64,000 nucleotides of DNA from Candidatus Marinacidobacterium sp. (GCA_965204755.1 OZ242011.1:2944001-3008000), one strand, 5' to 3'. Shown: positions 1-64,000, counted from the first letter of the stretch. The notes: generated by a model not told the origin, from the letters alone. A program made the numbers and translations.

Positions 1-1594
1 TCGGTGGATGCATGTCTCCGATCCCGACGGAGTCAACCTCCGCACCGGGCCGATCTTCGTGAAGGCCGGGCCGCGCCGGATCTCCGCGGCGTTCCTGAAG
101 CGGTTCGAAGGCCCGGTCCTCGACCTCATCTCGCCCCACGACTGGTCGCTCGCCTCCACGGCGACTTCGCGCGCCTACGGCATCCACAGCATGCCGCACC
201 TGCGCGACCTGTTCATCCGGGGCCCGTTCGACGCGACGGGTGTTTCGGAGACTCCGAGCCGGCGGGCGATCTTCGAGTGCCGTCCGCTGAGCGAGGCGGA
301 GGCGCGTCCGTGCGCGGAGCGGATCCTGGGGCGTTTGGGCCGGCTGGCGTATCGGGGCTCGCTGACGGCGGGGAAGTTGGGTTCGCTGCTGGAGTTGTAC
401 GACGCGGGAGCGGCGGCGAACGGTTTCGAGGAGGGGATCCGGATGGGGATCGAGGGGATGCTGGCGAGCCCGAACTTCGTGTTCCGGATCGAGGAGCCGC
501 TGGACCCGCGCGAGGCGGAGTACGGGTATCCGCTTTCGGATGTGGACCTGGCGTCTCGGCTGTCGTTTTTCCTGTGGGGGACGATCCCGGACGGGGAGTT
601 GCTGGACCTGGCGGAGGCGGGGCAACTGTCGGAGCCTGCGGTGTATGAGGCTCAGGTTCGGCGGATGCTGGCGGACGGGCGTTCGGATGCGCTTTCGCGG
701 CGCTTTGCGAGCCAGTGGTTCCGGCTGCAGGACCTGGAGAAGATCAACCCGAATGTCCGTTTGTATCCGGACTTCCACCAGCAGTTGAAGACGGCGATGG
801 TGGAGGAGACGGAGCGCTTCTTCCACCACCTGGTTGCGGAGGACCGGAGCGCGTTGGAGATGTTCACGGCGGACTACACCTTCGTGAACGAGCGTTTGGC
901 GCACCACTACGGGATCCCGGGGGTTACGGGGCCGGAGCACCGGCTGGTGAGGTATCCGGACGAGAGCCGCCGGGGGGTGTTCGGCCACGGGAGCATGTTG
1001 ACGCTGACTTCGCACCCGTACCGGACTTCGGCGGTGCTGCGGGGGAAGTGGGTGATGGAGGTGCTCCTGGGGAGTCCTCCTCCTCCGCCACCGCCGAATG
1101 TTTCGGACCTGGACGCGACTCCGGCGACGGCGGACGGCCGGGAGTTGACGGCGCGGGAGCGGCTGGAGATCCACCGGGACAACCCGGCGTGCCGCTCGTG
1201 CCACCGGATGATGGACCCGATCGGGCTGGCCCTGGAGCACTTCGATGTGACGGGCCGGGTCCGGGTGAAGGACTCGGGGCAGGCGATCGACGCTTCGGGC
1301 GAGTTCTACGACGGGACGGCGATCCGGGATGTTTCGGACTTGCGGGAGGCGCTGCTGCAGCGCCCGATACCGCTGCTTCGGACTTTCACGGAGAACTTGC
1401 TGGCGTACGGGTTGGGGCGCCGGGTGGAGTATTTCGACCAGCCGCGGGTACGGGAGATCGTGCGGGAGGCGGAGGGTTCGGGGTACCGGATGTCGGCGTT
1501 CCTGCTGGGGGTGGCGCGGAGCCCGGCGTTCCTGCGCAAGGGCGGTTCGCCGGCGGAGGAGTCGGCGACGGAGGCGATTTCCGGTCAGCACTGA
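1..1594 (+). CDS. DUF1592/DUF1588/DUF1585 (PSD-domain) protein with c-type heme motif; probably 5'-truncated by the window
   Basis: Motifs LASRLSFFLW, FTADYTFVNERLAHHYGI, RTSAVLRGKWV, PPPPP and CRSCH; followed by DUF1552, the usual partner. Confidence 0.85.
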   Translation, partial: RWMHVSDPDGVNLRTGPIFVKAGPRRISAAFLKRFEGPVLDLISPHDWSLASTATSRAYGIHSMPHLRDLFIRGPFDATGVSETPSRRAIFECRPLSEAEARPCAERILGRLGRLAYRGSLTAGKLGSLLELYDAGAAANGFEEGIRMGIEGMLASPNFVFRIEEPLDPREAEYGYPLSDVDLASRLSFFLWGTIPDGELLDLAEAGQLSEPAVYEAQVRRMLADGRSDALSRRFASQWFRLQDLEKINPNVRLYPDFHQQLKTAMVEETERFFHHLVAEDRSALEMFTADYTFVNERLAHHYGIPGVTGPEHRLVRYPDESRRGVFGHGSMLTLTSHPYRTSAVLRGKWVMEVLLGSPPPPPPPNVSDLDATPATADGRELTARERLEIHRDNPACRSCHRMMDPIGLALEHFDVTGRVRVKDSGQAIDASGEFYDGTAIRDVSDLREALLQRPIPLLRTFTENLLAYGLGRRVEYFDQPRVREIVREAEGSGYRMSAFLLGVARSPAFLRKGGSPAEESATEAISGQH

Positions 1595-1637
1595 CCGGCA
1601 GAGCACGGGTTCCGGGGACGGGGCCGAGGAGAGACGG

Positions 1638-3023
1638 ATGCACTACCTGACGGGCAAGAGCCTTCCGAGGCGGAGTTTCCTGCGGGGCGCGGGGGCGGTG
1701 GTGGCGCTGCCGTTCCTGGACGCGATGGTTCCGGCGAGCGCGGCGGCGAAGGTCGCGGGCTCGGCGGACCGGACGCGCCTGGTTGCGGTGGAGATCGTGC
1801 ACGGCGCGGCGGGGAGCAACAAGTACGGCCGGGAGAACCACCTGTGGTCCCCGGAGGCGGAGGGGACGGAGTTCGACCTGTCCCGGGGGGCGCTGGCGCC
1901 GCTGGAGCCGGTTCGGGACTATGTGACGGTCGTGAGCGACTGCGATGTGGAGCCGGCGGAGGCGCGGACGGCGCGGGAGATCGGCGGCGACCACTTCCGT
2001 TCGAGCGCGGCGTTCCTGACGCAGTCGTATCCGAAGCAGACGGAGAGTTCCGATGTGTATGCCGGGACTTCCCTGGACCAGTTGTATGCGCAGCGTTTCG
2101 GGCAGGAGACTCCGATCCCTTCGATGCAGTTGTGCATCGAGACGGTGGACCAGGCCGGGGGTTGCGCGTACGGGTATGCGTGCGTGTACACGGACACGAT
2201 CAGTTGGGCTTCCCCGACGGAGCCGCTCCCGATGACGCGCGACCCCCGGATCGTGTTCGACCAGTTGTTCGGCGCGGGCGGGACGCCGGAGGGCCGGCTG
2301 GCTCGGCAGGAGGCGCGCCGGAGCGTGCTGGACTTCATCTCGGGGGAGGTGCGGGACCTGAAGCGCAGTCTGGACTCGGAGGACCTGCGGCGGATGGACC
2401 GGTACCTGACGGACATCCGGGAGATGGAGCGCCGGATCGAGCGGATCGTCGCGCGGAACACGAGCGGGGAGTTGCGTGACCTCCCGGATGCGCCTTCGGG
2501 GGTTCCGGACTCGTTCGACGAGCATGTGAAGATCATGTTCGACCTGCAGGCGTTGGCGTTCCAGTCGGACATGACGCGGGTGTTCAGTTTCAAGTTGGGT
2601 CGGGACGCGTCGAGCCGGGTGTATCCGGAGAGCGGTGAGTCGACGGCGTTCCACCCGGCCTCGCACCACGGGAACGACCCGGAGCGGGTGGAGATCCTGG
2701 GGCGGATCAACCGGTACCATGTGGGTTTGATTCCGTACTTCATGGAGAAGTTGCGGAGCATCGAGGAGGGTGACCGGACGCTCCTGGACAAGACGATGAT
2801 CGTGTACGGGTCTCCGATGGGCGATCCGAACATCCACAACCACAAGCGGGTCCCGTTCTTCGTTGCGGGCGGGGCGAACGGGGCGTTGGAGAACAACCTG
2901 CACTTGCGTGCGGCTCCGGGGACGCCTCTGGCGAATGTGATGCTGTCGCTGCTGCGGCGGTTGGGCCTGGAGGACTTGGAGAGTTTCGGGAACAGCACCG
3001 GGGAGTTCTCGCTTTCGGCGTAG
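1638..3023 (+). CDS. DUF1552 (HXXSHH) family protein
   Basis: ATG at 1638 after GAGGAG; Tat-like RRSFLRG..LPFLDAM; HPASHH; GCAYGYACVY. Confidence 0.88.
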   Translation: MHYLTGKSLPRRSFLRGAGAVVALPFLDAMVPASAAAKVAGSADRTRLVAVEIVHGAAGSNKYGRENHLWSPEAEGTEFDLSRGALAPLEPVRDYVTVVSDCDVEPAEARTAREIGGDHFRSSAAFLTQSYPKQTESSDVYAGTSLDQLYAQRFGQETPIPSMQLCIETVDQAGGCAYGYACVYTDTISWASPTEPLPMTRDPRIVFDQLFGAGGTPEGRLARQEARRSVLDFISGEVRDLKRSLDSEDLRRMDRYLTDIREMERRIERIVARNTSGELRDLPDAPSGVPDSFDEHVKIMFDLQALAFQSDMTRVFSFKLGRDASSRVYPESGESTAFHPASHHGNDPERVEILGRINRYHVGLIPYFMEKLRSIEEGDRTLLDKTMIVYGSPMGDPNIHNHKRVPFFVAGGANGALENNLHLRAAPGTPLANVMLSLLRRLGLEDLESFGNSTGEFSLSA

Positions 3024-3049: not shown

Positions 3050-4909
3050 GTGAGGGCCATGGGCGTTCTGACGAGGACACGGGTTCTGGCGCTTTCGGCG
3101 CTGGTGAGCGCTGCGGCTCTGGCGGTGGCGGCAGCGCCGTCGTCGGGTCCGGTGTTGGAGGCGGCGAAGCGCGGGGATGTGGAGTCGGTTCGGGCGGAGT
3201 TGCGTTCGGGTGGTGATGTGAACGCGGCGGAGGGGGACGGTTTCACGGCGCTTCACTGGGCGGCGAAGCGCGGCGACGCGGAGTTGGCGGGTGTCCTGTT
3301 GTCTGCGGGAGCGGACTTCCGGGCGACGACGCGGCTGGGCGCGCACCAGCCGCTGCATGTGGCGGCGGCTGCGGGAGAGGCGGAGGTGGCGGAGGCGCTG
3401 CTGTCTGCGGGAGCGCCGGTCAGCGCGCCCACGGGAACCGGCGCCCGGCCGATCCACTTGGCCGCGGCCGCCGGCGACGAGCGAGTCGTCGCCGCCCTGG
3501 TCGCCGCCGGGGCGAATGTGGACGGGCAGGAGTCCGAGTGGGGAATGACCCCGCTCATGTTCGCCGCGGTGAAGGGGAGGTCGGAGGCCGTTACCGCCCT
3601 GTTGGAAGCGGGCGCTGACGCCGAAATCACCGCCAAGGTGCTCGACATCGTCGAGCGCGCCGAGTTCGACTCCGACGAGCGGCGGGCGCGGCAGGCCCGT
3701 TTGGCCGACCGGCGCGGCGGTACCGGCATCCTCTACGCCGAGCGTCCGGAGAACCGGGGAGCGCGCGCCGGCGGCGCGGCCGGCGCGGGCGCAGCCGCGG
3801 CGGGGACCGGAACCGGAGGCGGCGACCTGAATCCGGCCGGCCGCGCGGCCGGCGCGCCGCTCGACCCGCTGAATCCGGAAGTCGAAGAGGAAGATCCGAA
3901 CGAGCCGAAGCCGAAGACCTACGAGGAGCGTGTGGGCACCCACGGCGGCCTGACGGCGCTCCTGCTCGCCGCCCGGGAGGGGAAGATCGAGGCGGCCTCG
4001 GCGATGCTCGACGGCGGCGCCGATGTGAACCGGCGAGCCGCCGGAAGCGGCGCCACCCCGCTCCTGATGGCCACCATCAACGGCCACTTCGACCTGGCGA
4101 TGGAGTTGCTCGCGCGCGGCGCCGACCCGACGCTGGCCGACGCGCAGGGGGCGACGCCGCTCTACGGCGCGATCAACACCCAGTGGATACCCAAGGCGCG
4201 CCACCCGCAGCCGGCGGACTACCTCCAACAGGAGACCTCGCACCTGGAACTGATGCAGGCCCTGTTGGATGCCGGCGCCGATGTGAACGCCCGCATAGAC
4301 AGTTCCCTCTGGTACACGGTGTTCAATGTGGACCAACTGGGAGTGGACCGCAGCGGGGCGACCGCGTTCTGGCGCGCCGCCTATTCGCTGGACCTTCCGG
4401 CGATGAAGTTGCTCGTGGCGAACGGCGCCGACCCGCATATCCCGACGATCCGCGTCCCCGAACGGCGGCGCCTTCCCCGGATCATCCCGGAGGACGCCGA
4501 GGATCCCTCCGGCCTCCCGCCGGCCGAATACGGCGGCCCGGCGGTGTACCCGATCCATGCCGCCGCCGGAGTCGGCTACGGCCTCGGTTTGGCGGCGAAC
4601 TCACACCGTCACGCGCCGGAGGCGTGGTTCTCGGCGGTCGAATACTTGGTCGAAGAGTGCGGCGCGGATGTGACCGTCCGCGACCACAACGGCTACGGGG
4701 TCATCCACCATGCCGCTTCGCGCGGGGACAACGAGATGATCGAGTACCTCGTGGCGAAGGGCGCGGACCCGCTGCTCGTCGCCCGCACCGGCCAGACGAC
4801 GATCGACCTGGCCAACGGGCCGGTGCAGCGCATCAACCCCTTCCCGGAGACCATCGCGCTCCTCGAAAGTTACGGAGCCAAGAACAACCACGCCTGCGTC
4901 GGATGCTGA
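3050..4909 (+). CDS. Secreted ankyrin-repeat protein
   Basis: Signal-like N-terminus; many ankyrin repeats (TALHWAA, TPLMFAA, TPLLMA, GADVNA); C-terminal CVGC. Confidence 0.9.
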   Translation: MRAMGVLTRTRVLALSALVSAAALAVAAAPSSGPVLEAAKRGDVESVRAELRSGGDVNAAEGDGFTALHWAAKRGDAELAGVLLSAGADFRATTRLGAHQPLHVAAAAGEAEVAEALLSAGAPVSAPTGTGARPIHLAAAAGDERVVAALVAAGANVDGQESEWGMTPLMFAAVKGRSEAVTALLEAGADAEITAKVLDIVERAEFDSDERRARQARLADRRGGTGILYAERPENRGARAGGAAGAGAAAAGTGTGGGDLNPAGRAAGAPLDPLNPEVEEEDPNEPKPKTYEERVGTHGGLTALLLAAREGKIEAASAMLDGGADVNRRAAGSGATPLLMATINGHFDLAMELLARGADPTLADAQGATPLYGAINTQWIPKARHPQPADYLQQETSHLELMQALLDAGADVNARIDSSLWYTVFNVDQLGVDRSGATAFWRAAYSLDLPAMKLLVANGADPHIPTIRVPERRRLPRIIPEDAEDPSGLPPAEYGGPAVYPIHAAAGVGYGLGLAANSHRHAPEAWFSAVEYLVEECGADVTVRDHNGYGVIHHAASRGDNEMIEYLVAKGADPLLVARTGQTTIDLANGPVQRINPFPETIALLESYGAKNNHACVGC

Positions 4910-5961
4910 CCAAGCGAACTCTCACTTGGGGGGCTGGCGCGGTTGTCGCCTGCGCGGTCATTGCTGTCGTATGGAGTTCGTCAAGATATCGAAACCGTGT
5001 AGATGCCGCGGTCGGCGCCGAGATCGTGGCCCTTGACGCACGATTCCAAATGCTGCGTGCAATGGATCGGGCGCAGAACGCAGATGCGCTTGGGGCGTGG
5101 TTTTCGCAACGACTGGACGTTGAGGCAGCGGAAGCGTCTTTGCGCGATGCGGAGAATGTGCTCGCCGATGTTGGAGCCGAAATGACGGAACGAATCAAGA
5201 AGTACGAATCTCGGGCTAGTGGTTACGGGAGAATCGAAAGTGAACGACTAGGAGACATGGTGTCCGCCGCGCAACTGGCGAATCGCATGGCTGGCGCACC
5301 GAGAGAGATGCAAGTAGCCGTCGAGAAGGAGATCCAGTTGTCAGGGTTTGAAATAGGTCTGATGAGAAGATGGGCACAAGAGAACGCTTCCAAGGCAGAA
5401 CAGAGCCGTGCGGAAGTGGCACGTGCCGAAGAAGTGGCGTTGAAGGCCCGAGAGCGCTTCGCCGCTACGCGTCAAGCGAGCGCGATCTGGAATTCAGTGA
5501 GCGAAGAGGTAGAGCGTCGAGAGCGCACAGCTACTGGTCGGGCGGAGTCGGCCCGAGACGAAGTCCAAAACGCACTACGCTTGATCAAGGCGGAGGAAGG
5601 CTCTCCGGATGCGAAGGAGAGATCCTATCTCGCAGCATCGGCGACACTCCGAGAAGCGCTTCTCCGGAAGCGTCAGGCCATAGCCCAATTCAAGACGACT
5701 GTCCAGATTGAAGAGGCGCTCGATCACTCCGCAAGCCCGACTTCGTGGACGAACTATTGGACCAAGAAGCGACTGGCGATGTTGTGGATGCCGGATAGTC
5801 TGAGAGCAGTCGTCGAGGCCGCACAGGACGCGTTCTCCCAAGGCGCGCCTGCAGAATTGGCCGAGGATCGCGCGGCGAAGTGGGAGGCTGCCGCACGAGC
5901 GGCAGAGGCGTGGCAGCGTGCGGAACGGACAGCGACGGAGGCGTGGGAGCGGGTCGGCTAA
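4903..5961 (+). CDS. Hypothetical membrane-anchored, Ala/Glu/Arg-rich helical (coiled-coil-like) protein
   Basis: ATG overlaps the end of the ankyrin gene; one N-terminal hydrophobic segment; codon usage differs from neighbours. Confidence 0.6.
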   Translation: MLTKRTLTWGAGAVVACAVIAVVWSSSRYRNRVDAAVGAEIVALDARFQMLRAMDRAQNADALGAWFSQRLDVEAAEASLRDAENVLADVGAEMTERIKKYESRASGYGRIESERLGDMVSAAQLANRMAGAPREMQVAVEKEIQLSGFEIGLMRRWAQENASKAEQSRAEVARAEEVALKARERFAATRQASAIWNSVSEEVERRERTATGRAESARDEVQNALRLIKAEEGSPDAKERSYLAASATLREALLRKRQAIAQFKTTVQIEEALDHSASPTSWTNYWTKKRLAMLWMPDSLRAVVEAAQDAFSQGAPAELAEDRAAKWEAAARAAEAWQRAERTATEAWERVG

Positions 5962-7256
5962 GCGCCTCCGTTCCTTGGCTTCTTGATGATGACGCCCTTG
6001 GGGCGTGTGGCAACCGAGGGTCGCAAGGCGTTCATGGATGGCCCGTCCCATTGAGATCGCCGATCGTCGCTGACGAGCGCGGCGGAGAGCCGGCGTCCGA
6101 AAGACGGATTCGCTAGAAAGGACGAGCCAGACACCGTTCGCCGGACCGGCGCAAACCCGTCGAATGCAGATCGCTCATTCGGGCTGGCTCGGCGCCACTG
6201 CTTGGTGAATGGTTGGGGGGAGGCAGAAGGATCGTCGCGACGAGTGACCCAACGCGAGAGCAGGCAGGTGGAGACGTCGTCGATGAGTTTTTCGCTCCGA
6301 AGGAGCAGTCCCTCCAATGTTGCTTTTGCGTCCTCTTGGACAACATAGGTGTCGGCAGAATCGGCGTCGATGAACGCCTCGACATCGGATAGTGATGGAG
6401 ACCGGGGTAGCCGTCGTTGAGATCGAAAGCGAGCAGGGAGATGGCTAGGATTGAGTATAGTTGTGTCCGGTTCGCTATCGTGAAACTGCATTCGAAGGCC
6501 CCGATGAGTCAACATGTTTCGATAGTCCAACATCCAGTGGAGCCAGCCGCCAGCACTGTGACGGAGCACTGTGGCGCGAATCCCGGACAAGGGGTCATGG
6601 CCATCGCGATCCAGGGATTTCGGGAATGTTCGAGAGAAGGAGGCAGTCTTGATCCATTCGGGCAGTGGGTGCACGCCAATGATGAGGGCTGCCAAGCAAT
6701 CCAAGGCGCTGCAGAGGGCGCGGAGCAGCCCGTCGCGATGGATATCCGCAAGAGTGCCTCGCTGCAGGGAATCGAGTGGGCTCCGAACGGGCCCGGTAAG
6801 ACTGTCTCGCGTGGGGAAGAAGCACTCGTTCTCGGAGTGGTCCAAGTATTCGAGCCAGTGGACGCGGGCAGCAACAAGGTGCGTGGAAATACTGCTGGCG
6901 CAGACAAGGAGGTGGTCACCGATGAGGATGCGATGTGGTGTTACTTCCTTACACTGCGGAAGCCACCAGCCGATACCGTACGGCGGTGCGGTGCTAAGGT
7001 CCTCGAATACGGCCTTACGCAGGTGATGGACATGGGGTGTCTCGATGCCCAGTTTTTCCTCAAGTTCGTGCTCTTGGTGTCGCGGATCGCTACTCTGAAA
7101 CGGTTTGGCGAGGAGCGCGAGATGGGCGTCAAGCACGGTGTCGATGGGCGGTATGGTAGTCCCGAGCGAGGGCCGCATGGCCGACGCGGGAGAGAAACCA
7201 TAGCATGGGTTGCCTCGGCTGGTGGTTCGCCGATCTGGCTGCACGGGTGGCGTCAT
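5958..7256 (-). CDS. Hypothetical protein, putative HEPN-domain RNase (start uncertain)
   Basis: Helix LRALCSALDCLAALI followed by an Rx4H motif (YRNMLTHR); lower GC. Confidence 0.55.
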   Translation of the reverse strand: MTPPVQPDRRTTSRGNPCYGFSPASAMRPSLGTTIPPIDTVLDAHLALLAKPFQSSDPRHQEHELEEKLGIETPHVHHLRKAVFEDLSTAPPYGIGWWLPQCKEVTPHRILIGDHLLVCASSISTHLVAARVHWLEYLDHSENECFFPTRDSLTGPVRSPLDSLQRGTLADIHRDGLLRALCSALDCLAALIIGVHPLPEWIKTASFSRTFPKSLDRDGHDPLSGIRATVLRHSAGGWLHWMLDYRNMLTHRGLRMQFHDSEPDTTILNPSHLPARFRSQRRLPRSPSLSDVEAFIDADSADTYVVQEDAKATLEGLLLRSEKLIDDVSTCLLSRWVTRRDDPSASPQPFTKQWRRASPNERSAFDGFAPVRRTVSGSSFLANPSFGRRLSAALVSDDRRSQWDGPSMNALRPSVATRPKGVIIKKPRNGGA

Positions 7257-9023: not shown

Positions 9024-10040
9024 TCACTTCGATTGACGCGGGAAGTCTCGTGAAATCGTGCGGTCCCAGATACTGTCGAATGCTTCGGCGATGCCGTTCG
9101 GGCGAATGCCGCCGTATTCTCCGCTCGTGTGGCATATCGCGCCGCAACCGTCCTCATCGTGGAACAGCGTATGGAACGCTATCCGGTCGTTCCGTTGACG
9201 CCTCAGGTCCAACTCCTTGAGGATCACATAGTCGTGCGTCGCCAGAAACACCTGCACGCCGAGTCGGTGGAGTTTCAGGATCGCTTCAATGACGCCGCCG
9301 AGTAGAGAAGGATTCAGCGATGCCTCCGGGTGATCCCAGAACAACACGGAATCCTTTTTGAGAGTGCCGTTCCGCACCAGGAGCCAGAGCAAGCCCAGCC
9401 GTCGAAGACCGTCGGCTACGAGTGGAAACTCCAGATTGCCACGGTTGCAGTCCAAGTAGAACTCGCCATTCTCCACCCGGACTCTGCCGCCAAGGCGCAG
9501 GCCCTGAAGAACATCCTCGCGAGCGGCGTCCATCGGTACGCCGTGCGTGGTTCGGAGCGCCTGCTCGATCAGGTCCGAATGGAACTCCGGGGAGCGGGTT
9601 TCCGAGGATGATGGCCGGTTTCGAATTCCTGAGGTGCGCGACAACACTTCCTCGACCGGGATAAAGACGGCTTCCAGGGAATCATGGCGCCAAGCAGGAT
9701 CGACGCTCAGTTGCGCCGTGTTCGTCTCGCGCGAGTTCGTGGCGAATTCCAGACGCAGGCGGCGCGTCCCTCGATGCACCTCCACGGAACTGGTTTGGCC
9801 GCCGAGCCGGCGGGTGACGAGTCTCCCGATGAGCCGGTGTCGCGGTTGGAAGACGCCCACCAGTTGGTCTGCGAAGTCCTTGCCGGCGCGAGTGGCGGCG
9901 CCGGCAGCGTAGGCGACCCTCATCAAGTGCGTTTTGCCGGCGCCGTTCTTGCCGAGGAAGACATTGACGCCGGGGGAGAACTCGAGGTCGAGGTCCGTGA
10001 AGGCCGTGAAGTTCCTGAGCCGAACGCGAGTGAGGCTCAC
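9024..10040 (-). CDS. AAA_15/AAA_21-type ABC ATPase with atypical Walker B
   Basis: LRNFTAF..GVNVFLGKNGAGKT (Walker A); LFWDHPE; ATHDY (H-loop). Confidence 0.85.
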   Translation of the reverse strand: MSLTRVRLRNFTAFTDLDLEFSPGVNVFLGKNGAGKTHLMRVAYAAGAATRAGKDFADQLVGVFQPRHRLIGRLVTRRLGGQTSSVEVHRGTRRLRLEFATNSRETNTAQLSVDPAWRHDSLEAVFIPVEEVLSRTSGIRNRPSSSETRSPEFHSDLIEQALRTTHGVPMDAAREDVLQGLRLGGRVRVENGEFYLDCNRGNLEFPLVADGLRRLGLLWLLVRNGTLKKDSVLFWDHPEASLNPSLLGGVIEAILKLHRLGVQVFLATHDYVILKELDLRRQRNDRIAFHTLFHDEDGCGAICHTSGEYGGIRPNGIAEAFDSIWDRTISRDFPRQSK

Positions 10041-10116: not shown

Positions 10117-11157
10117 TCAGCCGCGGACCTGGCGGCCGGTGGAGTCCACCAGGTTGTAGCGGCGGGCGTCGGCGCGCCAGTCCTCGGAGCGGATGAGGGT
10201 GGTGTAGTCGTCGGTCGGGAGGGCCTGGTCGGCGTAGCCGGGCCAGGTGGGGCCGTCGGCTTCGGCGGCGCCGTCGCGGATGTGTTCGAGGCCCCGGCGC
10301 ATGGCGCCGAGGGCGAGGCGGAGCAACTGGCCGGCGTAGAGGACCAGGGGGACGCCGTTTTCGCGAAGGGTGCTCAGCGGGGTGTCGTGGACGCTGGCGA
10401 TCACCGGGCGGCCGGCCGCTTCGGACACTGCGCCGATGCGTTCCGGGGCGAGGCCGGCGAAGAAGAGGAGGTCGGCGCCGGCTTCGCCGTAGGCGGCGCC
10501 CCGTTCCATGGCTTCCGTCTCTTCGAGTCCGATGGAGACGGCGTCGCAGCGCGCCACCAGCATCAGGCCGCCCGAGCGGGCGTCGGCGGCGGCGCGGATG
10601 CGGTCCTGCATCCGGTCCCGCTCGATGAGGACGCCGCCTTCTCCCAGGTGCTTCGCCTGGACATGGTCTTCGATCATCACCGCGGCCAGGCCGCCGCGCT
10701 CGTAGCCGCGAACCGCGCGCGCCACCGCGAGCGGGCTCCCGCCGCCGTCGTCCGCGTCGGCGAACACCGGGACGGGGACGCTTCCGGCGATGCGGGAGGC
10801 GGTGTCGATGAGTTCGGTGATGGACGCGAGGCCGTAGTCGGGGAGTCCGTAGTTCGCTGCGGAACCGGCGCTGCCGCCGTACAGGACGGCCCCGAACCCC
10901 ATCTCGACGATCAGGCGCGCCGAGAGGACATCGAACGCGCCGGGACAGAGGACCGGCGCCCCGGCGGAGAGGAGGGAACGCAGCCGGCCGCCCATGTCGG
11001 AAGCCTCGGCTCCCTCCTGGCCCGCGCCGGAGCAGGCAGCGCCGGCGGTAGCGGCCAGTCCCCCGCCGGCCGAGCCGAGCACGGCGCCTCCGGCGCCGGC
11101 GGAGAGTCGCGTCATCGCCTCGCGGCGTCCGATTCCCGGTTCCGGAACTGTCTTCAT
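10117..11157 (-). CDS. Isocitrate lyase/PEP mutase family protein with Tat-like leader
   Basis: PGAFDVLSARL, GLPDYG, ADADDGGG, IEDH, ARCDA, YGEAGAD. Confidence 0.82.
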   Translation of the reverse strand: MKTVPEPGIGRREAMTRLSAGAGGAVLGSAGGGLAATAGAACSGAGQEGAEASDMGGRLRSLLSAGAPVLCPGAFDVLSARLIVEMGFGAVLYGGSAGSAANYGLPDYGLASITELIDTASRIAGSVPVPVFADADDGGGSPLAVARAVRGYERGGLAAVMIEDHVQAKHLGEGGVLIERDRMQDRIRAAADARSGGLMLVARCDAVSIGLEETEAMERGAAYGEAGADLLFFAGLAPERIGAVSEAAGRPVIASVHDTPLSTLRENGVPLVLYAGQLLRLALGAMRRGLEHIRDGAAEADGPTWPGYADQALPTDDYTTLIRSEDWRADARRYNLVDSTGRQVRG

Positions 11158-11186
11158 CGAGTGTCTCCCGGGGGACTCGCCCCCCG

Positions 11187-12071
11187 TTATCTCGCGCCCG
11201 GTCGGTGATCGAGGGCGCAGCGGAAGCCGATGGTGTGGATCCGCGTGTCGGGACGGGTGAAGTTGCGGTAGAAGACGCTGGCGATCCGTTCGTCGGTATC
11301 GGCCCAACTCCCGCCGCGGAAGACCCGGTAAGGGGCGTCTTCCGGGCCGCGGGGATTCACCGAAGCCGCCACCGCGTACTGGCCGAGGTCGTACCCGTCG
11401 GCGACCCATTCGGCGATGTTGCCCACCATGTCGTGGAGGCCGTAACCGTTCGGGGGGTAGGAGCCGACTGCAGTCGGTCCCCGGGGATGCCGTAGCCTCG
11501 CCGGGGGCGGGCCGCTCTCGCCGGCGCCCTCCCCGGTTCCCGGACGGAAGGTTTCGCCCCAGGGCCACGCCTTCCCAGCGAGACCGCCGCGCGCGGCTTT
11601 CTCCCACTCCGCCTCCGTCGGCAGCCGTTTGCCGCGGAAGTCGCAATACGCAGCCGCTTCGTCCCAAGTCAGGTTGTACGCCGGAAGGTCGGCGCGGTCG
11701 GCCGGGAAACCCTGCCGCCAGTGGAACGGCTCCGCGGCGCCGGTGCTCTCCGCGTACACGAGGTAAGCCCCCTGGGTCACTTCCGTCCGGTCCATCCAGA
11801 AGCCGGGCAGCGTCACGCGGTGCGCCGGGCGGTCGTCCACCCGGTCGCGCGCCTGCCAGCCGATCTCGTCTATGAGCCACAGCCTCGTGCGTCCCATCCA
11901 GAAGTCGCCCGGCGGGATCCAGCAGATGTCCTCCGCGCGGTCGTCGGTGCAATGGGCGGAGACCGCGCCGCCCTCGTCCCCGGCGCCTCCCGATACGGCG
12001 GCGCCGGAGAGCAGCAGGAGCGCCGCGGCCCGGACGCCGACTCTCAGGCGAGCCGGCGGCCGCCTACGCAA
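11187..12071 (-). CDS. Formylglycine-generating enzyme (SUMF1/FGE-sulfatase) family protein
   Basis: RLPTEAEWEKAARGG, PNGYGLHDMVGN, RGGSW, GFRC. Confidence 0.9.
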   Translation of the reverse strand: MRRRPPARLRVGVRAAALLLLSGAAVSGGAGDEGGAVSAHCTDDRAEDICWIPPGDFWMGRTRLWLIDEIGWQARDRVDDRPAHRVTLPGFWMDRTEVTQGAYLVYAESTGAAEPFHWRQGFPADRADLPAYNLTWDEAAAYCDFRGKRLPTEAEWEKAARGGLAGKAWPWGETFRPGTGEGAGESGPPPARLRHPRGPTAVGSYPPNGYGLHDMVGNIAEWVADGYDLGQYAVAASVNPRGPEDAPYRVFRGGSWADTDERIASVFYRNFTRPDTRIHTIGFRCALDHRPGAR

Positions 12072-13476: not shown

Positions 13477-13479
13477 GGC

Positions 13480-52785: not shown

Positions 52786-53249
52786 GGCGAGACGGCCTGA
52801 GAGAAGTGCGGGCGGCACCGAAGGCGGGCCGACGCGGCCCGCGAATTCTAACCGGAGCGGGTCCGGTAGGTCAGCGGGGTGAGCACCGCGTGGAGCCGTG
52901 GGGCGCATCAGGCATAGGCGCTTGAAAGGGCGGGGGCGAGCGGCGGCACGGGCCACCGGAAGAGGGGCGACTGGTCTTTTTCGTTCGGATGGCCGGTAGT
53001 CCGCTCCGGAGAGCGACCGGGGAGGCAGCCGGGACGTTCAGGGCACAGGAAGGCATGTTCTCTCGTGGTAGCCTTTCCGGCTGCTGGCCATTCCGGCGTC
53101 GGCGTTCCCGGTCGGGGTGGGGTCGGCGGGCGCGGCGGTCGTTTCGCGCTTCGAGAGCGCCGACTTCGAGTCGCGCCGGGGGGCGCCCGGCGCGGTGGCC
53201 GTTCTGCTCCCTTCTCCTCCGGTCAGCCGAGGGCTGATCGTGGTGTCCG

Positions 53250-54527
53250 ATGCCCTTCCTGCCGGGGCGCGTTTCGCGCCCGTTCGCCGCCGGCGCCCTT
53301 CTCGTGGCGGCAGCCTCGTTCGGGGCCGCGCCTTCGGCGGCCGGCCAGCGGCTCGCGGGGGCCGGGAGCGGCTCCCCCTGGGCGGGGGAGGGGAGCGCCG
53401 ACGAGTCGCGGTTCCTGAGCCGGGTCCGGCGGCTGACCGTGGAGGGGCGGCGGGCCGGGGAGGGGTACTTCTCGCCGGACGGACGGGAGATCGTCTTCCA
53501 GTCGGAGCGCGAGCCGGGCAACCCGTTCTTCCAGATCTACCTCCTGTCGTTCGAGACCGGCGAGACGCTGCGGGTCTCCCCGGGGACCGGCAAGACGACC
53601 TGCGCCTTCATCTCGCCGAGCGACGGCGGGGTCCTCTTCGCGTCCACGCACCTCGACCCCGGGTCGGTGGAGTTGCAGCGGGAGGAGATCGAGTTCCGGG
53701 AGAGCGGGCGGGAGCGCCGCTACTCCTGGGACTACGACCCGGCGATGGACTTGTTCGCTTGGGACCGGGACACGGGGGAGTTGACCCGGTTGACCGAGGC
53801 GCGGGGCTACGACGCCGAGGCCAGTTACTCGCCGGACGGGGAATGGATCGCGTTCACTTCGATGCGCTCGCTGTTCGAGGACGAGTTGACGGAGCGCGAA
53901 CGGCGGCTGGCGGAAGTGGACCCGTCCTACTTCGGCGAGATCTGGATCATGCGCGCCGACGGCAGCGGGAAGACCAGACTCACGAACGCTCCCGGCTACG
54001 ACGGGGGGCCGTTCTTCTTCCCGGACGGGGAGCGGATCGTGTGGCGGCGGTTCAGCGAGGACGGCGTGATCGCGGACATCTATTCCATGCGGCGGGACGG
54101 CAGCGACCTCCGCAGGTTGACCGACTTCGGCTCCATGAGTTGGGCGCCGTATGTCCATCCGTCCGGCGAATACCTGCTCTTCGCCTCGAACAAACTCGGC
54201 TTCAGCAACTTCGAGGTGTACATGGTGGACACCGCGGGCGAGAAGGAGCCGATCCGCGTTACGACGACGGACGGCTTCGACGGCCTGCCGGTGCCGACCC
54301 CGGACGGGCGCGGCCTCGCTTGGACCTCCACCCGCCACGGGGAAGGCTCCGGCGGACAGATCTACCTGGCCGACTGGAACCACGAGGAAGCGCTGGCCGC
54401 GCTCGTCGCCGCGCCGGCCCGGCGTTCGGCGTCGGAGACGCCGCATGAACCACGATCCGGGAACGGGATCGTTCGGCGTCTTGGCATGGACCGGATGCCT
54501 CGGAAGCCATCGGGGAAGCACGAATGA
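53250..54527 (+). CDS. TolB-like PD40 beta-propeller protein
   Basis: RRAGEGYFSPDG, GYDAEASYSPDG, GYDGGPFFFPDG. Confidence 0.88.
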   Translation: MPFLPGRVSRPFAAGALLVAAASFGAAPSAAGQRLAGAGSGSPWAGEGSADESRFLSRVRRLTVEGRRAGEGYFSPDGREIVFQSEREPGNPFFQIYLLSFETGETLRVSPGTGKTTCAFISPSDGGVLFASTHLDPGSVELQREEIEFRESGRERRYSWDYDPAMDLFAWDRDTGELTRLTEARGYDAEASYSPDGEWIAFTSMRSLFEDELTERERRLAEVDPSYFGEIWIMRADGSGKTRLTNAPGYDGGPFFFPDGERIVWRRFSEDGVIADIYSMRRDGSDLRRLTDFGSMSWAPYVHPSGEYLLFASNKLGFSNFEVYMVDTAGEKEPIRVTTTDGFDGLPVPTPDGRGLAWTSTRHGEGSGGQIYLADWNHEEALAALVAAPARRSASETPHEPRSGNGIVRRLGMDRMPRKPSGKHE

Positions 54528-56233
54528 CACGCAAGAATCTCCTCGACGCCCGGACGGTCGATTTCCTGGAGTTGATCGGCAACGGGCGCACTTTCTCGGT
54601 TCCGCCGTACCAGAGAGACTACTCGTGGAACACCGAGGAGTGGGACGACCTGTGGAGCGACATCGTGGAACTCCGTGACCGACCGCAGGAGAGGCACTAC
54701 ATGGGGGCTGTCCTGGTCAAGTCGAAGACGGACTTCGAATTCCTCGTTATCGACGGCCAGCAGCGGCTGGCGACACTCAGTCTGTTCGCTCTCGCCGTCG
54801 CCAAGCGTTTGAGGACTCTCGCCGACGGTGGACTCGACGCTGAGGCGAACAGGTCGCGAGCTCAGGCCCTGCATGATCGGTTCATCGGGGAAAAGGACCC
54901 CGCGTCGCTTCTGGAAGCGAGTCGGTTGTCCCTGAACGAGACGGACAACGGCTTCTACCGGGACTACTTGGTGCAGGACCGAGCCCCTTCCAACCCCACG
55001 GCGCTGCAGGGATCCAAGCGCCAGATCTGGGGCTGTTACTGCTTCTTCCTGCGAAAACTCGAAGGGGACCCGCGACTTCGAAGTGACGGAGAGGCATTGG
55101 CGAAATTCCTGTCGCTCACGGTAGCGCGCCAGTTGCTCTTCATCATGATCACCGTCGAAGACGAACTGAACGCCTACACCGTATTCGAGACGCTGAACGC
55201 CCGAGGTGTCAGCCTGACGACGACGGATCTGCTGAAGAACTACCTGATCTCTCGCGTAGAGACACCCAGCGATGTAGATGACCTGCATCGCCGCTGGCGC
55301 ACTCTCGTGGGCACGGTCAAGGAGGGGCGGTTCCCGGACTTCCTTCGATACCACCTGTTGTCCAGGCACTCGCGAATTCGACGCCCGAACCTGTTCAAGA
55401 TCGTCCGGGACCAGTTCCGCACGCTCCCGGAAGTCTTCGAACTGCTCAAGCAACTGGAGTCCAGGGCGGAGATCTTCGCTGCGCTCACGGACTCGAGCCA
55501 CGACTACTGGAAGGATCTGCCCGAGGCGGGACCCCTTATCCGAGAACAGATTCTCTTTCGGGTCCGGCAGATGACGCCGCTTCTGTTCACCGTGTGGGAA
55601 CGGTTTTCGCGTCAGGACTTCGTTCGCGTGTTGAAGTTCGTGAGCGTGATATCGTTCCGTTACAACATCGTCAGTGCGCTGAGCCGGAGTGAGTTGGAAC
55701 CTGCTTACTCTCAGGCCGCCAAGGCCGTAGCGGCCGGAGAGTCGGTGACGCCGGGCGCCGTGTTCCGGACGCTCGACTCGATCTATGTCGACGACGAGAA
55801 GATGGCGCAGGACTTTTCTCGACTCCGGATAAACACGCACAGCGTCCGAAAGAAGGTCGTTCGGTACATCTTGACTCGACTCGAGGCGGACGCATCCGGA
55901 GGCATCGTGGATCCCGATGTGGATCCGGGATCGATCGAACACATTCTGCCGGAGAATCCTGGCGAAACTTGGGAGGAGGAATTCGCGAGAGAGAGGCATG
56001 AGGCGTTCCTGTACAGAATCGGGAACCTGACCCTGCTCGAGAAGAAGGCGAACCGAGATATCGGCAACCGGCCTTACGCAGACAAGGTGGCGGTGTACGA
56101 ACGCAGCAGCTATGCGCTGGCGCGACAGGTTGCCGAGATAGCGCCGGAAGAGTGGACGCCGGCGCTCGTCGAACACCGACAGAAGAAACTGGCCGCTCGC
56201 GCCGTACAGATCTGGAGGGCCGATTTTGCCTGA
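54524..56233 (+). CDS. DUF262 + DUF1524 protein (GmrSD/SspE-like nuclease)
   Basis: PPYQRDYSW, IDGQQRLAT, FETLNARG; SIEHILP..IGNLTLL..N (HNH-like). Confidence 0.9.
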   Translation: MTRKNLLDARTVDFLELIGNGRTFSVPPYQRDYSWNTEEWDDLWSDIVELRDRPQERHYMGAVLVKSKTDFEFLVIDGQQRLATLSLFALAVAKRLRTLADGGLDAEANRSRAQALHDRFIGEKDPASLLEASRLSLNETDNGFYRDYLVQDRAPSNPTALQGSKRQIWGCYCFFLRKLEGDPRLRSDGEALAKFLSLTVARQLLFIMITVEDELNAYTVFETLNARGVSLTTTDLLKNYLISRVETPSDVDDLHRRWRTLVGTVKEGRFPDFLRYHLLSRHSRIRRPNLFKIVRDQFRTLPEVFELLKQLESRAEIFAALTDSSHDYWKDLPEAGPLIREQILFRVRQMTPLLFTVWERFSRQDFVRVLKFVSVISFRYNIVSALSRSELEPAYSQAAKAVAAGESVTPGAVFRTLDSIYVDDEKMAQDFSRLRINTHSVRKKVVRYILTRLEADASGGIVDPDVDPGSIEHILPENPGETWEEEFARERHEAFLYRIGNLTLLEKKANRDIGNRPYADKVAVYERSSYALARQVAEIAPEEWTPALVEHRQKKLAARAVQIWRADFA

Positions 56234-58034: not shown

Positions 58035-58069
58035 CCCGGTCGTTGTCGGACGAAGGAGCGCCGCTCCCG

Positions 58070-59869
58070 GTGGAGCGGGTGCGCAACTTCTGCATCATCG
58101 CCCATGTGGATCACGGGAAGTCCACGCTCGCCGACCGGCTGATCCAGCGCTGCGGCGGGGTTTCGGACCGCGAGTTCCGGAACCAGTTGCTCGACTCCAT
58201 GGAACTCGAGCGGGAACGCGGCATCACCATCAAGTCGAACAGCGTCTCGCTGCTCCACGAACATCGCGACGGCCAGACCTACCAGTTGAACCTGATCGAC
58301 ACGCCGGGCCATGTGGACTTCTCGCACGAGGTGCGGCGGTCGCTCATGTCCTGCGAGGGCGCGCTCCTCCTGGTGGACGCGGCGCAGGGCGTGGAGGCGC
58401 AGACCGTCGCCAACTACTTCGTGGCCATGGAGTACGACCTCGCCGTCGTTCCGGTCATCAACAAGATCGACCTTCCCGCCGCCGACCCGGAGCGCGCGCG
58501 GGAGGAGATCGACGACGAACTCGGTCTCGACCCGTTCGAAGCGGTGCTGGCTTCCGCCAAGCGCGGCGACGGCATCGGCGAAGTGCTCGACGCGATCGTG
58601 GAGAAGATCCCGGCCCCCGGCGGTGACTCGAACGCCCCGCTCCGGGCGCTGGTGTTCGACGCCCAATACGATGTCTATCGGGGAGTGGTGCTCCTGATCC
58701 GAGTCGTGGACGGGGCGATCCGCCCCGGCGACCGCGTGCGGCTGATGCACGGCGAGCGCGATTACCAGGTGGAGGAGGTGGGGCGGCTTCGACTCCGCCG
58801 GGAGTCCGTCGAGGAGTTGCCGGCGGGCGCGGTCGGTTACGCCATCTGCGGGATCCGCGCCATCCGGGACATCGCCATCGGCGACACGCTCGCCGGGGTC
58901 GAGCCCGCCGCGGAGGAAGCGCTCCCCGGATACACGGAAGCGTTGCCGGTGGTGTTCTCGTCGGTGTACCCGATTTCGACCGACGACTACGGCGAACTCG
59001 AGGCGGCGCTCGACCGGCTCTCGCTGAACGACGCCGCCCTCACTTTCGAGCGCGAGACCTCCACCGCGCTCGGTTTCGGTTTCCGTTGCGGTTTCCTCGG
59101 CCTCCTGCATCTCGATGTCGTCCAGGAGCGGCTGCAGCGCGAGTACGGGCTCTCGCTGCTTCTGTCCGCGCCGAGCGTCCGCTACCGGATCGAGACGAGC
59201 GACGGGCGGACGCGCGAAGTCGAGAACCCGGCGCTCTATCCGGATCCGACGATCATCGAGGGAACCGAGGAGCCCTACATCCGCGCTTCGATCCTCGCGC
59301 CGGAGCGTTCGGTGGGAGTGGTGATGGAACTGCTCACCGAACGGCGGATGGCGACCAGCAAGATGAACTTCCTGTCGGCCCGCCGGGTGGAAGTGGTCGC
59401 CGAACTCCCGCTCGCCGAAGTGCTCTTCGACTTCCACGACCGGTTGAAGACGGTCACCCGGGGTTACGGCAGTTACGACTACGACCTGCTCGACTACCGG
59501 CCGGTGGACCTGGTGAAAGTGGACATCCTGGTGAACGGGGAGCGGGTGGACGCGCTCAGCCAGTTGGTGGAGCGGGAGAGCGCGCGCCCCCGCGCGCTCC
59601 ACTACTGCGAGCGGCTGGCCGAGACGATCCCGATGCACAACTTCAAGATCGCCGTCCAGGGCGCCATCGGCGGCAAGATCATCGCCCGCACCAACATCCG
59701 CGCGCTTCGCAAGGATGTGACCGCGAAGTGCTACGGCGGCGACATCACCCGGAAGCGGAAACTGCTCGAACGCCAGAAGGAAGGCAAGAAACGCATGAAA
59801 CAGGTCGGGCAGGTGCAGATTCCGCAGTCGGCCTTCGTGGCCGTCCTGAAGTCGAGTCCGACCGCGTGA
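58070..59869 (+). CDS. lepA: Translation elongation factor 4
   Basis: RNFCIIAHVDHGKSTLADR, DTPGHVDF, GFRCGFLGLLH, KDVTAKCYGGDITRKRKLL. Confidence 0.97.
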   Translation: MERVRNFCIIAHVDHGKSTLADRLIQRCGGVSDREFRNQLLDSMELERERGITIKSNSVSLLHEHRDGQTYQLNLIDTPGHVDFSHEVRRSLMSCEGALLLVDAAQGVEAQTVANYFVAMEYDLAVVPVINKIDLPAADPERAREEIDDELGLDPFEAVLASAKRGDGIGEVLDAIVEKIPAPGGDSNAPLRALVFDAQYDVYRGVVLLIRVVDGAIRPGDRVRLMHGERDYQVEEVGRLRLRRESVEELPAGAVGYAICGIRAIRDIAIGDTLAGVEPAAEEALPGYTEALPVVFSSVYPISTDDYGELEAALDRLSLNDAALTFERETSTALGFGFRCGFLGLLHLDVVQERLQREYGLSLLLSAPSVRYRIETSDGRTREVENPALYPDPTIIEGTEEPYIRASILAPERSVGVVMELLTERRMATSKMNFLSARRVEVVAELPLAEVLFDFHDRLKTVTRGYGSYDYDLLDYRPVDLVKVDILVNGERVDALSQLVERESARPRALHYCERLAETIPMHNFKIAVQGAIGGKIIARTNIRALRKDVTAKCYGGDITRKRKLLERQKEGKKRMKQVGQVQIPQSAFVAVLKSSPTA

Positions 59870-62755: not shown

Positions 62756-63005
62756 AGCGCCGCGGCTATCCGTCCGCCGGGTCCGGTCGGTCCCGGATCG
62801 GGGGGCGCTCGAAGCCGGTCAGCGGTCGCCGCGGTCGCCTATACTCGCGGCCGTCGTGGGTTTCACCCCCTTTCGACGGGACGCCGGATCGAGGGCCGGG
62901 CGGTCGTGTCGGCGGCCGACCGGCGAAGTCGCGCCGGCCTCCCCCGAGGAACCCGGTCGAGTGAGCGCGGGCGTTACGGCTTCCGCCCCAAGAGGCTGAG
63001 GGACG

Positions 63006-64000
63006 ATGGCGAACGCGATCTCCGCGCGGGAGAAGTTCCAGGCGCTGTTGCGCGAACTGTTCCAGTTCGACTGCGCCGACCTCGACTTCGGCATCTACCG
63101 CATCATGAACCACAAGCGGGCGGTCATCGAGGAGTTCATCGAAAACGATCTGCTGGCCCTCGTAACCGAGGAAATCGCGTCGGGGGCGCTCGCCGGCCAG
63201 TCGGAAGCCGCAGGGGAACTGGCGACGGCCCGCCGCCGGGTTCGCGAAGCATTCGGTCCGAATGCGATCACCGGTGACGGCGAGATCGAGAGCCGCTTTC
63301 GCGAGACGCCTCTCGGGAAGAAGTATGCGGCCTTGCAGGGGCGGTCCGGCGGGGCGGCCGATCCGGAAGAGATCGAAGCCGACCTCTTCAATCGTCTCTA
63401 CGAGTTCTTTCGACGGTACTACCGCGATGGTGACTTCGTTCCCCAAGGCCGAGGGGCCGGCCGGGCGCCGTTCTCCATCCCCTACGACGGGGCCGAAGTG
63501 CATTTCCACTGGGCGAACCGCGGCCAGTACTATGTGAAGAGCGCCGACCGCTTCCGCCACTACGCCTTCACCGTGGCCGGCGTCTCTGTCCGTTTCGATC
63601 TACGGTCGGCGGAACTGGAACACAACGATGTCAAGGTGGAGGGCCGGTTCTTCGTACCTCTGGTCGGAGAAGCCGAACTCACCGAGGACTCCGGTCGCCC
63701 ATCCCTGAGACTTCCGTTCGAGTACCGGTCGTTCGAAGCGGAGAAGACGCCGGGACTCGGCCCGATGCGCCAGGACGCCCTGCTCGAGCGCGCCGCGAGC
63801 GATCTGCTTGAAAAACTGAAAGGAGAATCCGCTCTGGCCGCGGCGCTGAGCGCCGCGCATCCGACGCGCGCGGCAGACCGGTCGTTGAGTGTTCTGGAAC
63901 ACCATCTCCGCCGATACGCTCGCCGCAACACCTCCGACTTCTTCATCCACCGGAACCTGCGAGCCTTCCTCGAGCGCGAGTTCGATTTCTACCTGAAGAA
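63006..64000 (+). CDS. Type III RM Mod-like DNA methyltransferase, N-terminal part (runs off the window)
   Basis: Open from ATG 63006: LRELFQFDCADLDFGIYRIMN, YDGAEVHFHWANRGQYYVKS, RNTSDFFIH..L..FLERE.DFYLK; catalytic motifs are not inside the window. Confidence 0.8.
   Translation, partial: MANAISAREKFQALLRELFQFDCADLDFGIYRIMNHKRAVIEEFIENDLLALVTEEIASGALAGQSEAAGELATARRRVREAFGPNAITGDGEIESRFRETPLGKKYAALQGRSGGAADPEEIEADLFNRLYEFFRRYYRDGDFVPQGRGAGRAPFSIPYDGAEVHFHWANRGQYYVKSADRFRHYAFTVAGVSVRFDLRSAELEHNDVKVEGRFFVPLVGEAELTEDSGRPSLRLPFEYRSFEAEKTPGLGPMRQDALLERAASDLLEKLKGESALAAALSAAHPTRAADRSLSVLEHHLRRYARRNTSDFFIHRNLRAFLEREFDFYLK

Follow-up and report, generated by a model that had tools for sequence, protein, structure and literature searches.

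Near-complete loss of the words AGCT and ACGT from the chromosome of a Candidatus Marinacidobacterium species, a probable case of unusually strong restriction-site avoidance

The tetranucleotides AGCT and ACGT are almost absent from the genome of Candidatus Marinacidobacterium sp. (GCA_965204755.1; here G000), which consists of a single contig of 3,975,858 bp with 71.7% GC. The stretch examined, called the window in the following, comprises 64 kb with 70.6% GC (positions 1..64000, corresponding to OZ242011.1:2944001-3008000 or G000:C1:2944001-3008000). It contains 12 AGCT, where 121 are expected from a second-order Markov model and 172 from base composition, and 6 ACGT, where 122 and 172 are expected. 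The whole genome holds 332 AGCT of 7,446 expected and 265 ACGT of 7,146 expected, with ratios of observed to expected counts (O/E) of 0.045 and 0.037; about 96% of these sites are gone from the chromosome. No other of the 256 tetramers has a lower O/E in G000. The loss is genome-wide, independent of the reading frame, equal in native non-coding DNA, and was still proceeding after the two species of the genus had split. It probably represents restriction-site avoidance of unusual strength, that is, selection against AGCT and ACGT as DNA words.

Within genes, the expectation was obtained by shuffling synonymous codons within each gene, using a set of 1,755 high-confidence genes (2.63 Mb) called by the signature of GC at third codon positions (GC3). 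AGCT occurs 72 times against 6,030 expected (O/E 0.012) and ACGT 78 times against 4,859 (O/E 0.016), which confirms the depletion in core genes that an original prediction had claimed from the window sequence. The 26 confident native genes lying wholly in the window contain neither word (expected 73.0 AGCT and 68.6 ACGT). The codon-aware method is not the source of the effect, because orthologous genes of 16 non-depleted relatives give O/E values of 0.55-1.05. A single degenerate enzyme directed against ASST was considered and is out, as ACCT and AGGT are normal (codon-aware O/E 1.08 and 0.86). The next lowest tetramer in G000, CTAG (O/E 0.13), is also rare in the rpoBC regions of most of 19 relatives (0-6 found vs 2-14 expected) and, of the 10 regions for which at least 8 are expected, 7 contain less than a quarter of that expectation; its depletion is an older, family-wide feature.

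All three reading frames are affected. In frames 0, 1 and 2 of the 1,755 genes AGCT is found 23, 35 and 14 times where 1284, 4503 and 243 are expected, and ACGT 19, 43 and 16 times where 1476, 3156 and 228 are expected. Native non-coding DNA, represented by 85.7 kb of spacers flanked by confident genes (n=622, GC 0.75), holds 3 AGCT of 104.7 expected and 5 ACGT of 95.1 expected.

The original prediction offered two causes for such a loss, mutational decay and restriction-site avoidance. According to the first, resident C5-methyltransferases would methylate AG(5mC)T and A(5mC)GT, and the methylated sites would deaminate to AGTT/AACT and ATGT/ACAT. The excess that compensates the loss in genes does fall in AGTT (2.25x in the window genes), AACT (1.75x) and ATGT (2.91x); the fourth predicted product, ACAT, is not in excess in the window genes (1.02x). 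Across the 1,755 genes the codon-aware deficit of 4,468 sites of the form xAG-CTx (the hyphen marks the codon boundary) is accompanied by gains of 2,068 AGTT and 2,891 AACT, the deficit of 3,113 xAC-GTx by a gain of 3,113 ATGT, and AGC-T has mostly become AGT-T (+1001 of a deficit of 1261). Every CTN Leu and GTN Val codon begins with the offending letters, and xAG-CTx and xAC-GTx cannot separate deamination from selection, because C-to-T-type changes are the sole one-step synonymous escapes.

Frame 2 is different, since either deamination of xxA-GCT or xxA-CGT alters the amino acid. Both are nevertheless lost, by a factor of about 15 (14 of 243, O/E 0.06, and 16 of 228, O/E 0.07), compared with 22 of 23.8 AGCT (0.92) and 15 of 27.4 ACGT (0.55) in frame 2 of the 16 normal relatives. 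The codon GCT supplies 0.3% of Ala after an A-ending codon vs 3.6% otherwise, and CGT 0.3% of Arg vs 4.0% otherwise, a 12- to 13-fold decrease. This loss speaks against pure mutation, because a mutational process would leave non-synonymous sites in place. Threonine codons give a second test. Before T they are ACC (75%), ACT (22%), ACA (2.2%) and ACG (0.5%), and elsewhere ACC (56%), ACT (2.5%), ACA (1.1%) and ACG (40%); from the deficit of 1457 ACG-T the synonymous deamination product ACA gains just 30. At orthologous ACG-T sites G000 now has ACC five times, ACT twice and ACA once. In the 622 native spacers there is no excess of AGTT/AACT (O/E 0.96) or of ATGT/ACAT (1.03). The predicted excess of deamination products is therefore found in genes for AGTT, AACT and ATGT, and neither for ACAT nor for any of the four in intergenic DNA.

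Orthologous sites with AG-CTC in at least two non-depleted genera (n=27) provide a further test: G000 has xAA-CTC at 16, AG-TTR (Leu) at 7 and another state at 4, and the direct C-to-T product AG-TTC at none of the 27. Codon choice next to the words is extreme. After xAG, 97.7% of Leu codons are TTG (4.2% elsewhere), Glu before CT is GAA in 99.6% of cases (32% elsewhere), and Asp before GT is GAT in 99% (10% elsewhere). At 138 places where one of the words is present in at least two non-depleted genera G000 retains none, and the amino-acid pair is unchanged at 103. Our conclusion is that selection is directed in the DNA against the words as such and overrides codon preference almost completely; many of the mutations that it fixes may stem from deamination. 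Deamination as the cause is contradicted by the frame-2, ACG-T, intergenic and AG-CTC tests, and restriction-site avoidance fits all tests run (frames, spacers, codon override). A separate preference, unrelated to AGCT and ACGT, was seen in the same 1,755 genes: T-ending codons are favoured before a T-starting codon, with TCT making up 5.5% of Ser codons before T vs 1.3% elsewhere and GGT-T reaching 2.9x its shuffled expectation.

The clusters of sites that are retained flag either foreign DNA or native elements under sequence constraint. The rRNA operon region holds 24 AGCT and 6 ACGT of the genome totals of 332 and 265, with an AGCT density that is roughly normal (24 vs about 26 expected). 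The tRNA and tmRNA genes contribute 25 AGCT and 6 ACGT, and arrays of a 13-bp box 69 AGCT and 0 ACGT, so that RNA genes and box arrays together account for 118 of the 332 AGCT (36%). The 1,755 confident genes, 66% of the genome, hold 60 AGCT and 76 ACGT of the retained sites, and the remaining 34% of the genome 154 and 177. Of all retained sites, 38% have a surrounding GC (2 kb) below 0.64, vs 4% of random positions.

In the window 13 of the 18 sites are located in two low-GC stretches and the other five in a box array (Table 1). The original prediction had given exact positions for all six ACGT and for six of the AGCT, and had mentioned intact sites in the repeat array, where five more AGCT are located; it had missed the AGCT at 54859. 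The first low-GC stretch is foreign-looking in composition only; the second is a defence island with nine retained sites. In the high-GC native stretch between them ACGT is missing altogether and AGCT is confined to the box array; the codon-aware expectation there reaches 5.6 sites per gene, and every confident gene has 0.

DNA of foreign composition is itself partly cleansed. In 2-kb tiles the O/E is 0.37-0.39 at GC 0.56-0.60, 0.18-0.25 at GC 0.60-0.64 and 0.01-0.04 above GC 0.68. Seven open reading frames (ORFs) of the window islands (45.4-56.2 kb and the 4-10 kb stretch) contain 6 AGCT of 31.6 expected and 4 ACGT of 36.2 expected. Compositionally foreign DNA is thus already 3- to 10-fold depleted, which points to a recent or still current pressure in G000. 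The proposal that retained sites point to recently acquired genes is borne out only in part: O/E rises to 0.2-0.4 in the low-GC tiles, but 118 AGCT belong to native RNA genes and box arrays.

Relatives were sampled through 4.8-kb lepA loci and 7-20-kb rpoBC regions, giving 5-45 kb per relative, and 23 of the 28 genomes of the family were measured (the other five belong to genus g2). AGCT is depleted in two of the 23 and ACGT in four; the other 19 are normal. In 20 kb around rpoBC G000 has 0 ACGT of 41 expected and 1 AGCT of 36. The corresponding regions show 6 of 24 and 11 of 40 in the congener G001, 5 of 44 and 53 of 55 in G005, and 2 of 16 and 28 of 19 in G007. G005 and G007 represent two other genera and are depleted in ACGT only; the rpoBC regions of 16 other family genomes are normal. 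The 4.8 kb surrounding lepA contain neither word in G000, compared with 10-21 AGCT and 11-27 ACGT in most family members. None of 11 order-level loci (including that of G027) is depleted, and none of 29 evenly drawn phylum-level rpoB loci, the locus of G063 left out, is AGCT-depleted. The depletion is lineage-specific. In a midpoint-rooted FastTree analysis of ten concatenated proteins genus g1 stands next to g6 (support 0.96), and G007 and G005 branch separately (support 0.92). With these modest supports, the ACGT-depleted lineages appear to form no obvious clade.

The comparison of the two congeners dates the process. At 37 two-route AGCT sites G000 and G001 took the same synonymous route 26 times (about 18 expected if independent) and different routes 11 times, and at 8 further sites AGCT is still present in G001 and lost in G000. 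Since routes are shared at 26 sites, discordant at 11 and the word is kept in G001 at 8, the purge started before the split and continued in both species. The rpoBC genes of G001 are less depleted than those of G000 (O/E about 0.15 vs 0.00).

Searches of G000 returned 6 C5-methyltransferase and 6 Vsr matches, the two kinds of gene that the original prediction had suggested looking for, and 26 N4/N6-methyltransferase matches. Five of the six Vsr matches are situated within about 6 kb of a C5-methyltransferase, and one has an internal stop. The C5-methyltransferase M1 adjoins an EcoRII-like nuclease, and M4 adjoins a nuclease of the BbrUII/HgiDII family (L075:5933-9051). GTCGAC, which we take to be the site cut by that family, occurs 416 times in G000 against 2,076 expected (0.20), and this five-fold depletion is an ordinary avoidance in the same genome.

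Three loci track the depletion within the family. The M3 cassette (L074:8155-12828; G000:C1:1259155-1263828) consists of five genes for a C5-methyltransferase, PDC-M33A, PDC-M33B, PDC-M33C/DUF6339 and Vsr; PDC-M33A/B/C is a PADLOC candidate system. Its order is kept, with 40-70% identity, in metagenome-assembled genomes of Acidobacteriota, Entotheonella, Binatia and Dehalococcoidia (L102-L107). A more distant version, the M6 cassette, with genes for proteins of 627, 345 and 260 aa followed by M6 and Vsr, is present in G000, G005 and three other acidobacterial genomes. Cassettes of the M3/M6 type look like an uncharacterised mobile restriction-type module; a literature search on PDC-M33 and DUF6339 found no paper. 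Within the family M3 is restricted to G000 and G001 (72% identity) and tracks the loss of AGCT. Apart from a variant of 44% identity in G001, M6 is restricted to G000 and G005 (80%), and it tracks the loss of ACGT. At the M6 locus of G001 (G001:C1:243001-261000, about 2.7-11.6 kb) a divergent module with a methyltransferase of 42-44% identity stands in place of the G000 cassette; it has 7 AGCT and 17 ACGT in about 9 kb and is a recent replacement in an otherwise depleted genome.

The third locus encodes MTase C (Table 1), a solitary methyltransferase of the N4/N6 family whose SPPY motif is presumably of the N4-cytosine type. It is found in G000, G001 and G007 (59%), with a remnant in G005 (residues 228-351), and also tracks the loss of ACGT. 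It is absent from the other 24 family genomes, 19 of which were measured as normal. No partner nuclease adjoins it; its neighbours are a beta-lactamase-fold gene, a GmrSD gene and housekeeping genes. As a side observation, contigs with MTase C homologues in unrelated metagenomes often lack GATC, GGCC or CCGG instead. The matches between enzymes and depletion within the family reflect a small number of independent events. Three further N4/N6-methyltransferases, A (at 2,357,113 in G000), B (490,694) and D (1,095,371), were rejected as candidates because they are widespread in normal relatives, as was the Uma2 'putative restriction endonuclease', whose copy number does not track the depletion.

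AluI-type systems recognise AGCT, and MaeII/HpyCH4IV-type systems recognise ACGT. By recognition word they are the natural candidates. Avoidance of restriction sites in host genomes has reportedly been described by Gelfand and Koonin in 1997 and by Rocha in 2001. In a survey, avoidance of the sites of orthodox type II systems is described as widespread, as growing with residence time and as able to outlive the system, and 47.9% of the actual site-genome pairs have a ratio of 0.78 or less (Rusinov et al. 2015, PMC4687349). G000 resembles these cases in that short palindromes are under-represented in a lineage-specific manner; in known cases, too, the effect is greater where a system has long been resident, and it can outlast any system that can be identified. 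Unlike the surveyed cases with their cut-off of 0.78, G000 reaches an O/E of 0.04 genome-wide and 0.012-0.016 by the codon-aware measure, for two 4-bp words at once, and the relatives of the tracking methyltransferases do not accompany avoidance in other genomes. The depletion in G000 is most likely an extreme case of known site avoidance. A literature search on such depletion in this lineage found no paper.

Restriction-site avoidance would require one or two nucleases specific for the 4-bp palindromes AGCT and ACGT, encoded in the lineage now or until recently. Such a nuclease would occasionally cut its own chromosome, and every removable site would be removed as a consequence. Sites in rRNA genes, tRNA genes and box arrays would survive where sequence constraint outweighs the cost, retained sites would presumably be protected by methylation, and incoming DNA would progressively be cleansed. 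That the agent is a nuclease is what we infer from this pattern.

Several findings weigh against this explanation. A 25- to 80-fold depletion lies far beyond the survey cut-off of 0.78 and would hardly be expected if protective methylation were complete. The sites are not lethal, as about 60 of them are tolerated in rRNA and tRNA genes and another 69 in box arrays. No nuclease or methyltransferase of proven specificity for AGCT or ACGT was found, and the tracking enzymes behave differently outside the family. All six unrelated genomes with M3 homologues (62-67% identity; five with the whole cassette, one with part of it) are AGCT-normal, with 58/64, 49/63, 94/62, 62/73, 38/46 and 88/84 observed/expected, which makes M3 unlikely as the AGCT agent. 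The identity profile of M3 is flat along the enzyme, the variable region included, and names of homologues gave no specificity (1 of 120 listed was named, and generically). All three carriers of the M6 cassette from other families (54-62%) are ACGT-normal, whether measured beside the cassette or at a locus far from it; their M6 variable region is just 40-63% identical, and M6 as the ACGT agent receives low weight. On 22 metagenome contigs with MTase C homologues (58-71%) the pooled ACGT count is 375 of 452 expected (0.83). At identities of 54-73% the specificity of such homologues may differ from that of the G000 enzymes.

The causal systems might be gone, and the depletion a slowly fading scar. 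This would be a sub-case of restriction-site avoidance and not a different mechanism. It would account for the fact that no cognate nuclease was found, for G005, which is still depleted with just a remnant of MTase C, and for G001, which is less depleted than G000 and has its M6 locus replaced by a site-rich divergent module; traces of lost systems are common (PMC4687349). Against a mere scar stand the losses that both congeners went on to accumulate independently once they had separated (11 routes discordant, 8 sites retained by G001 alone) and the 3- to 10-fold depletion already reached in compositionally foreign DNA of G000. We therefore regard a complete loss of the cutters as unlikely.

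The AGCT loss has a counterpart in viruses. In two pandoravirus strains AGCT is totally absent and ACGT normal (5,822 and 6,165 copies), and no explanation by restriction-modification was found (Poirot, Jeudy, Abergel and Claverie 2019, bioRxiv 10.1101/712018). G000 is similar in that AGCT was removed in one clade only, from a genome that is rich in GC and measures about 2 Mb or more, from coding and non-coding DNA alike, and with no restriction-modification gene that explains the loss. It differs in that AGCT is not totally gone, with 332 copies left and about a third of these situated in RNA genes and box arrays, in that ACGT is depleted too, and in that the host, a bacterium, carries restriction-type genes in abundance, so that an ordinary explanation is at hand. 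It seems improbable that the purge in G000 is not a footprint of the AluI/MaeII kind and reflects a stronger, so far unrecognised conflict, either methyl-marking combined with GmrSD or a new class of nuclease acting on AGCT. If such a nuclease class were real, the loss of AGCT from pandoraviruses would be its work as well. The lineage has graded states (nearly complete loss in G000, partial loss in G001, loss of ACGT only in G005 and G007, normal sister genera) and would under either form of conflict make the unexplained AGCT anomaly experimentally tractable.

One specific form of conflict involves type IV restriction: the words would be avoided since methyltransferases with 4-bp targets, resident ones such as MTase C or invading ones, would mark them for cleavage by GmrSD, and not on account of a nuclease specific for AGCT or ACGT. 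A genome free of the words can hold both a methyltransferase and GmrSD nucleases, and G000 has at least three GmrSD genes (window 54524-56233; L075:9103-10809; L173:8257-10671), the last of which lies at a distance of one gene from MTase C in G000 and likewise in G001. MTase C lacks a partner nuclease and is found in the four ACGT-depleted genomes and in none of 24 others, and no orthodox partner nuclease was found for any of the tracking methyltransferases. All of this evidence is circumstantial. The substrates known for GmrSD enzymes are hydroxymethyl- and glucosyl-cytosine, and N4-methylcytosine is not known to be one; carriers of MTase C homologues elsewhere show no loss of ACGT; and it would be easier for the cell to drop a methyltransferase than to purge about 7,000 sites. 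Avoidance driven by GmrSD is accordingly held to be very unlikely.

Mutational decay, with its six C5-methyltransferase genes and the excess of AGTT, AACT and ATGT in genes, including the change of AGC-T to AGT-T, has an equally slight chance of being the cause. Apart from the tests above, in which decay fails in the non-synonymous frames (14/243, 16/228), at ACG-T (ACA at 1 of 8 orthologous sites), in intergenic DNA (0.96, 1.03) and at AG-CTC (TTC at 0 of 27), the six vsr genes, five of them beside C5-methyltransferases, would repair T:G mismatches. The presence of vsr does not aid this explanation, because Vsr would counteract deamination; Dcm sites of E. coli are under such Vsr repair. Furthermore, G007 is ACGT-depleted without a C5-methyltransferase match (genome 86% complete). 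Vertebrate CpG is depleted roughly five-fold through deamination of 5-methylcytosine. The resemblance in G000 is that cytosine in a methylatable context is scarce and that genes are rich in TG/CA-type neighbours. It is unlike CpG decay in the missing product excess in unconstrained DNA, in the depletion of non-synonymous frames, in being much deeper than about five-fold, and in having six vsr genes.

An assembly artefact, in which methylated cytosines are miscalled as T in a long-read consensus, would yield exactly AGTT/AACT and ATGT/ACAT in a single-contig genome such as G000, but the probability is negligible, as the replacements respect the protein (103 of 138 pairs unchanged, TTC never for CTC), the sites in rRNA and tRNA genes are preserved at about the normal density, changes other than C-to-T make up many of the replacements (ACC, ACT, GCC/GCG), and three other assemblies, one with 410 contigs, are depleted alike.

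Table 1. Position of the features mentioned in the text (window coordinates, unless a locus is given).
Feature	Position	Strand	Remarks
Low-GC stretch	4183..7256		GC 0.63-0.64; ACGT at 5117, 5421, 6274; AGCT at 5529
ORF, no family match	4183-5961	+	GC3 0.55
ORF, no family match	5958-7256	-	GC3 0.66
AAA ATPase	9024..10040	-	match to PADLOC candidate defence HEC-02A (321 bits); adjoins low-GC stretch; 0 retained sites
High-GC native stretch	10117..44028		DUF1501/DUF1549-1553 genes, ABC transporter, sigma factor, metG, amidohydrolases
Box array	26769..27139	+	two clusters (26769-26850, 27019-27139); 10 exact copies of CTATACACAATTC, about 20-bp spacing; AGCT at 26770, 26810, 26834, 27067, 27087
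Defence island	45433..56233		GC 0.62-0.67; AGCT at 45679, 45802, 51032, 52204, 54859, 56108; ACGT at 51376, 52352, 53034
PDC-S11/DUF4268	45433-46401	-	defence island
1000-aa protein	46728-49730	-	defence island; weak mad2 and methyltransferase-like matches
HEC-01B AAA ATPase	51610-52956	-	defence island
PD40-repeat protein	53250-54527	+	defence island
GmrSD/HEC-06 type IV nuclease	54524-56233	+	defence island
lepA	58067..59869	+	anchor for sampling relatives
MTase C	L173:5855-7120 (G000:C1:1033855-1035120)		solitary N4/N6-family methyltransferase, SPPY motif

The box array is a native high-GC element with nine loci and 100 exact CTATACACAATTC boxes in G000. In the window array AG precedes five of the copies, which creates the five AGCT. 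The other loci are near 357.9k, 756.0k, 1208.0k, 1660.0k, 2045.5k, 2895.5k, 3119.1k and 3494.2k of G000:C1. Each locus consists of two clusters of 4-9 exact copies with a spacing of 20-21 bp (sometimes about 30 bp), separated by a spacer of 150-235 bp. Beyond the boxes the loci share short similarities, and a few flanking ORFs are common to subsets of them. The arrays resemble protein-binding sites.

G000 is a sponge-associated bacterium, and its DNA recurs in sponge and marine metagenomes (15 runs). Ankyrin-repeat proteins, which are often reported for sponge symbionts, are encoded in the window at 3050-4909 (+) and 38404-39318 (-) and also at L073:10415-11671, and they fit these metagenomes. 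Cumulative GC skew in G000 is lowest at 2,538,292 and highest near 4,247; should these points be the origin and terminus, the two replichores would differ greatly in length (about 1.44 and 2.54 Mb).

G000 offers a clean natural case in which selection on a DNA word beats codon preference, the share of TTG among Leu codons rising from 4% to 98% after an AG-ending codon. It also calls for caution, since what looks like a 'deamination footprint' in genes can arise as a side effect of which escape routes happen to be synonymous. The graded relatives provide a means to date and dissect site avoidance and, if the agent is unusual, may illuminate the unexplained loss of AGCT in pandoraviruses. Within the lineage itself, a cluster of AGCT or ACGT sites is a marker of recently acquired DNA or of a constrained element such as an RNA gene or a binding-site array.

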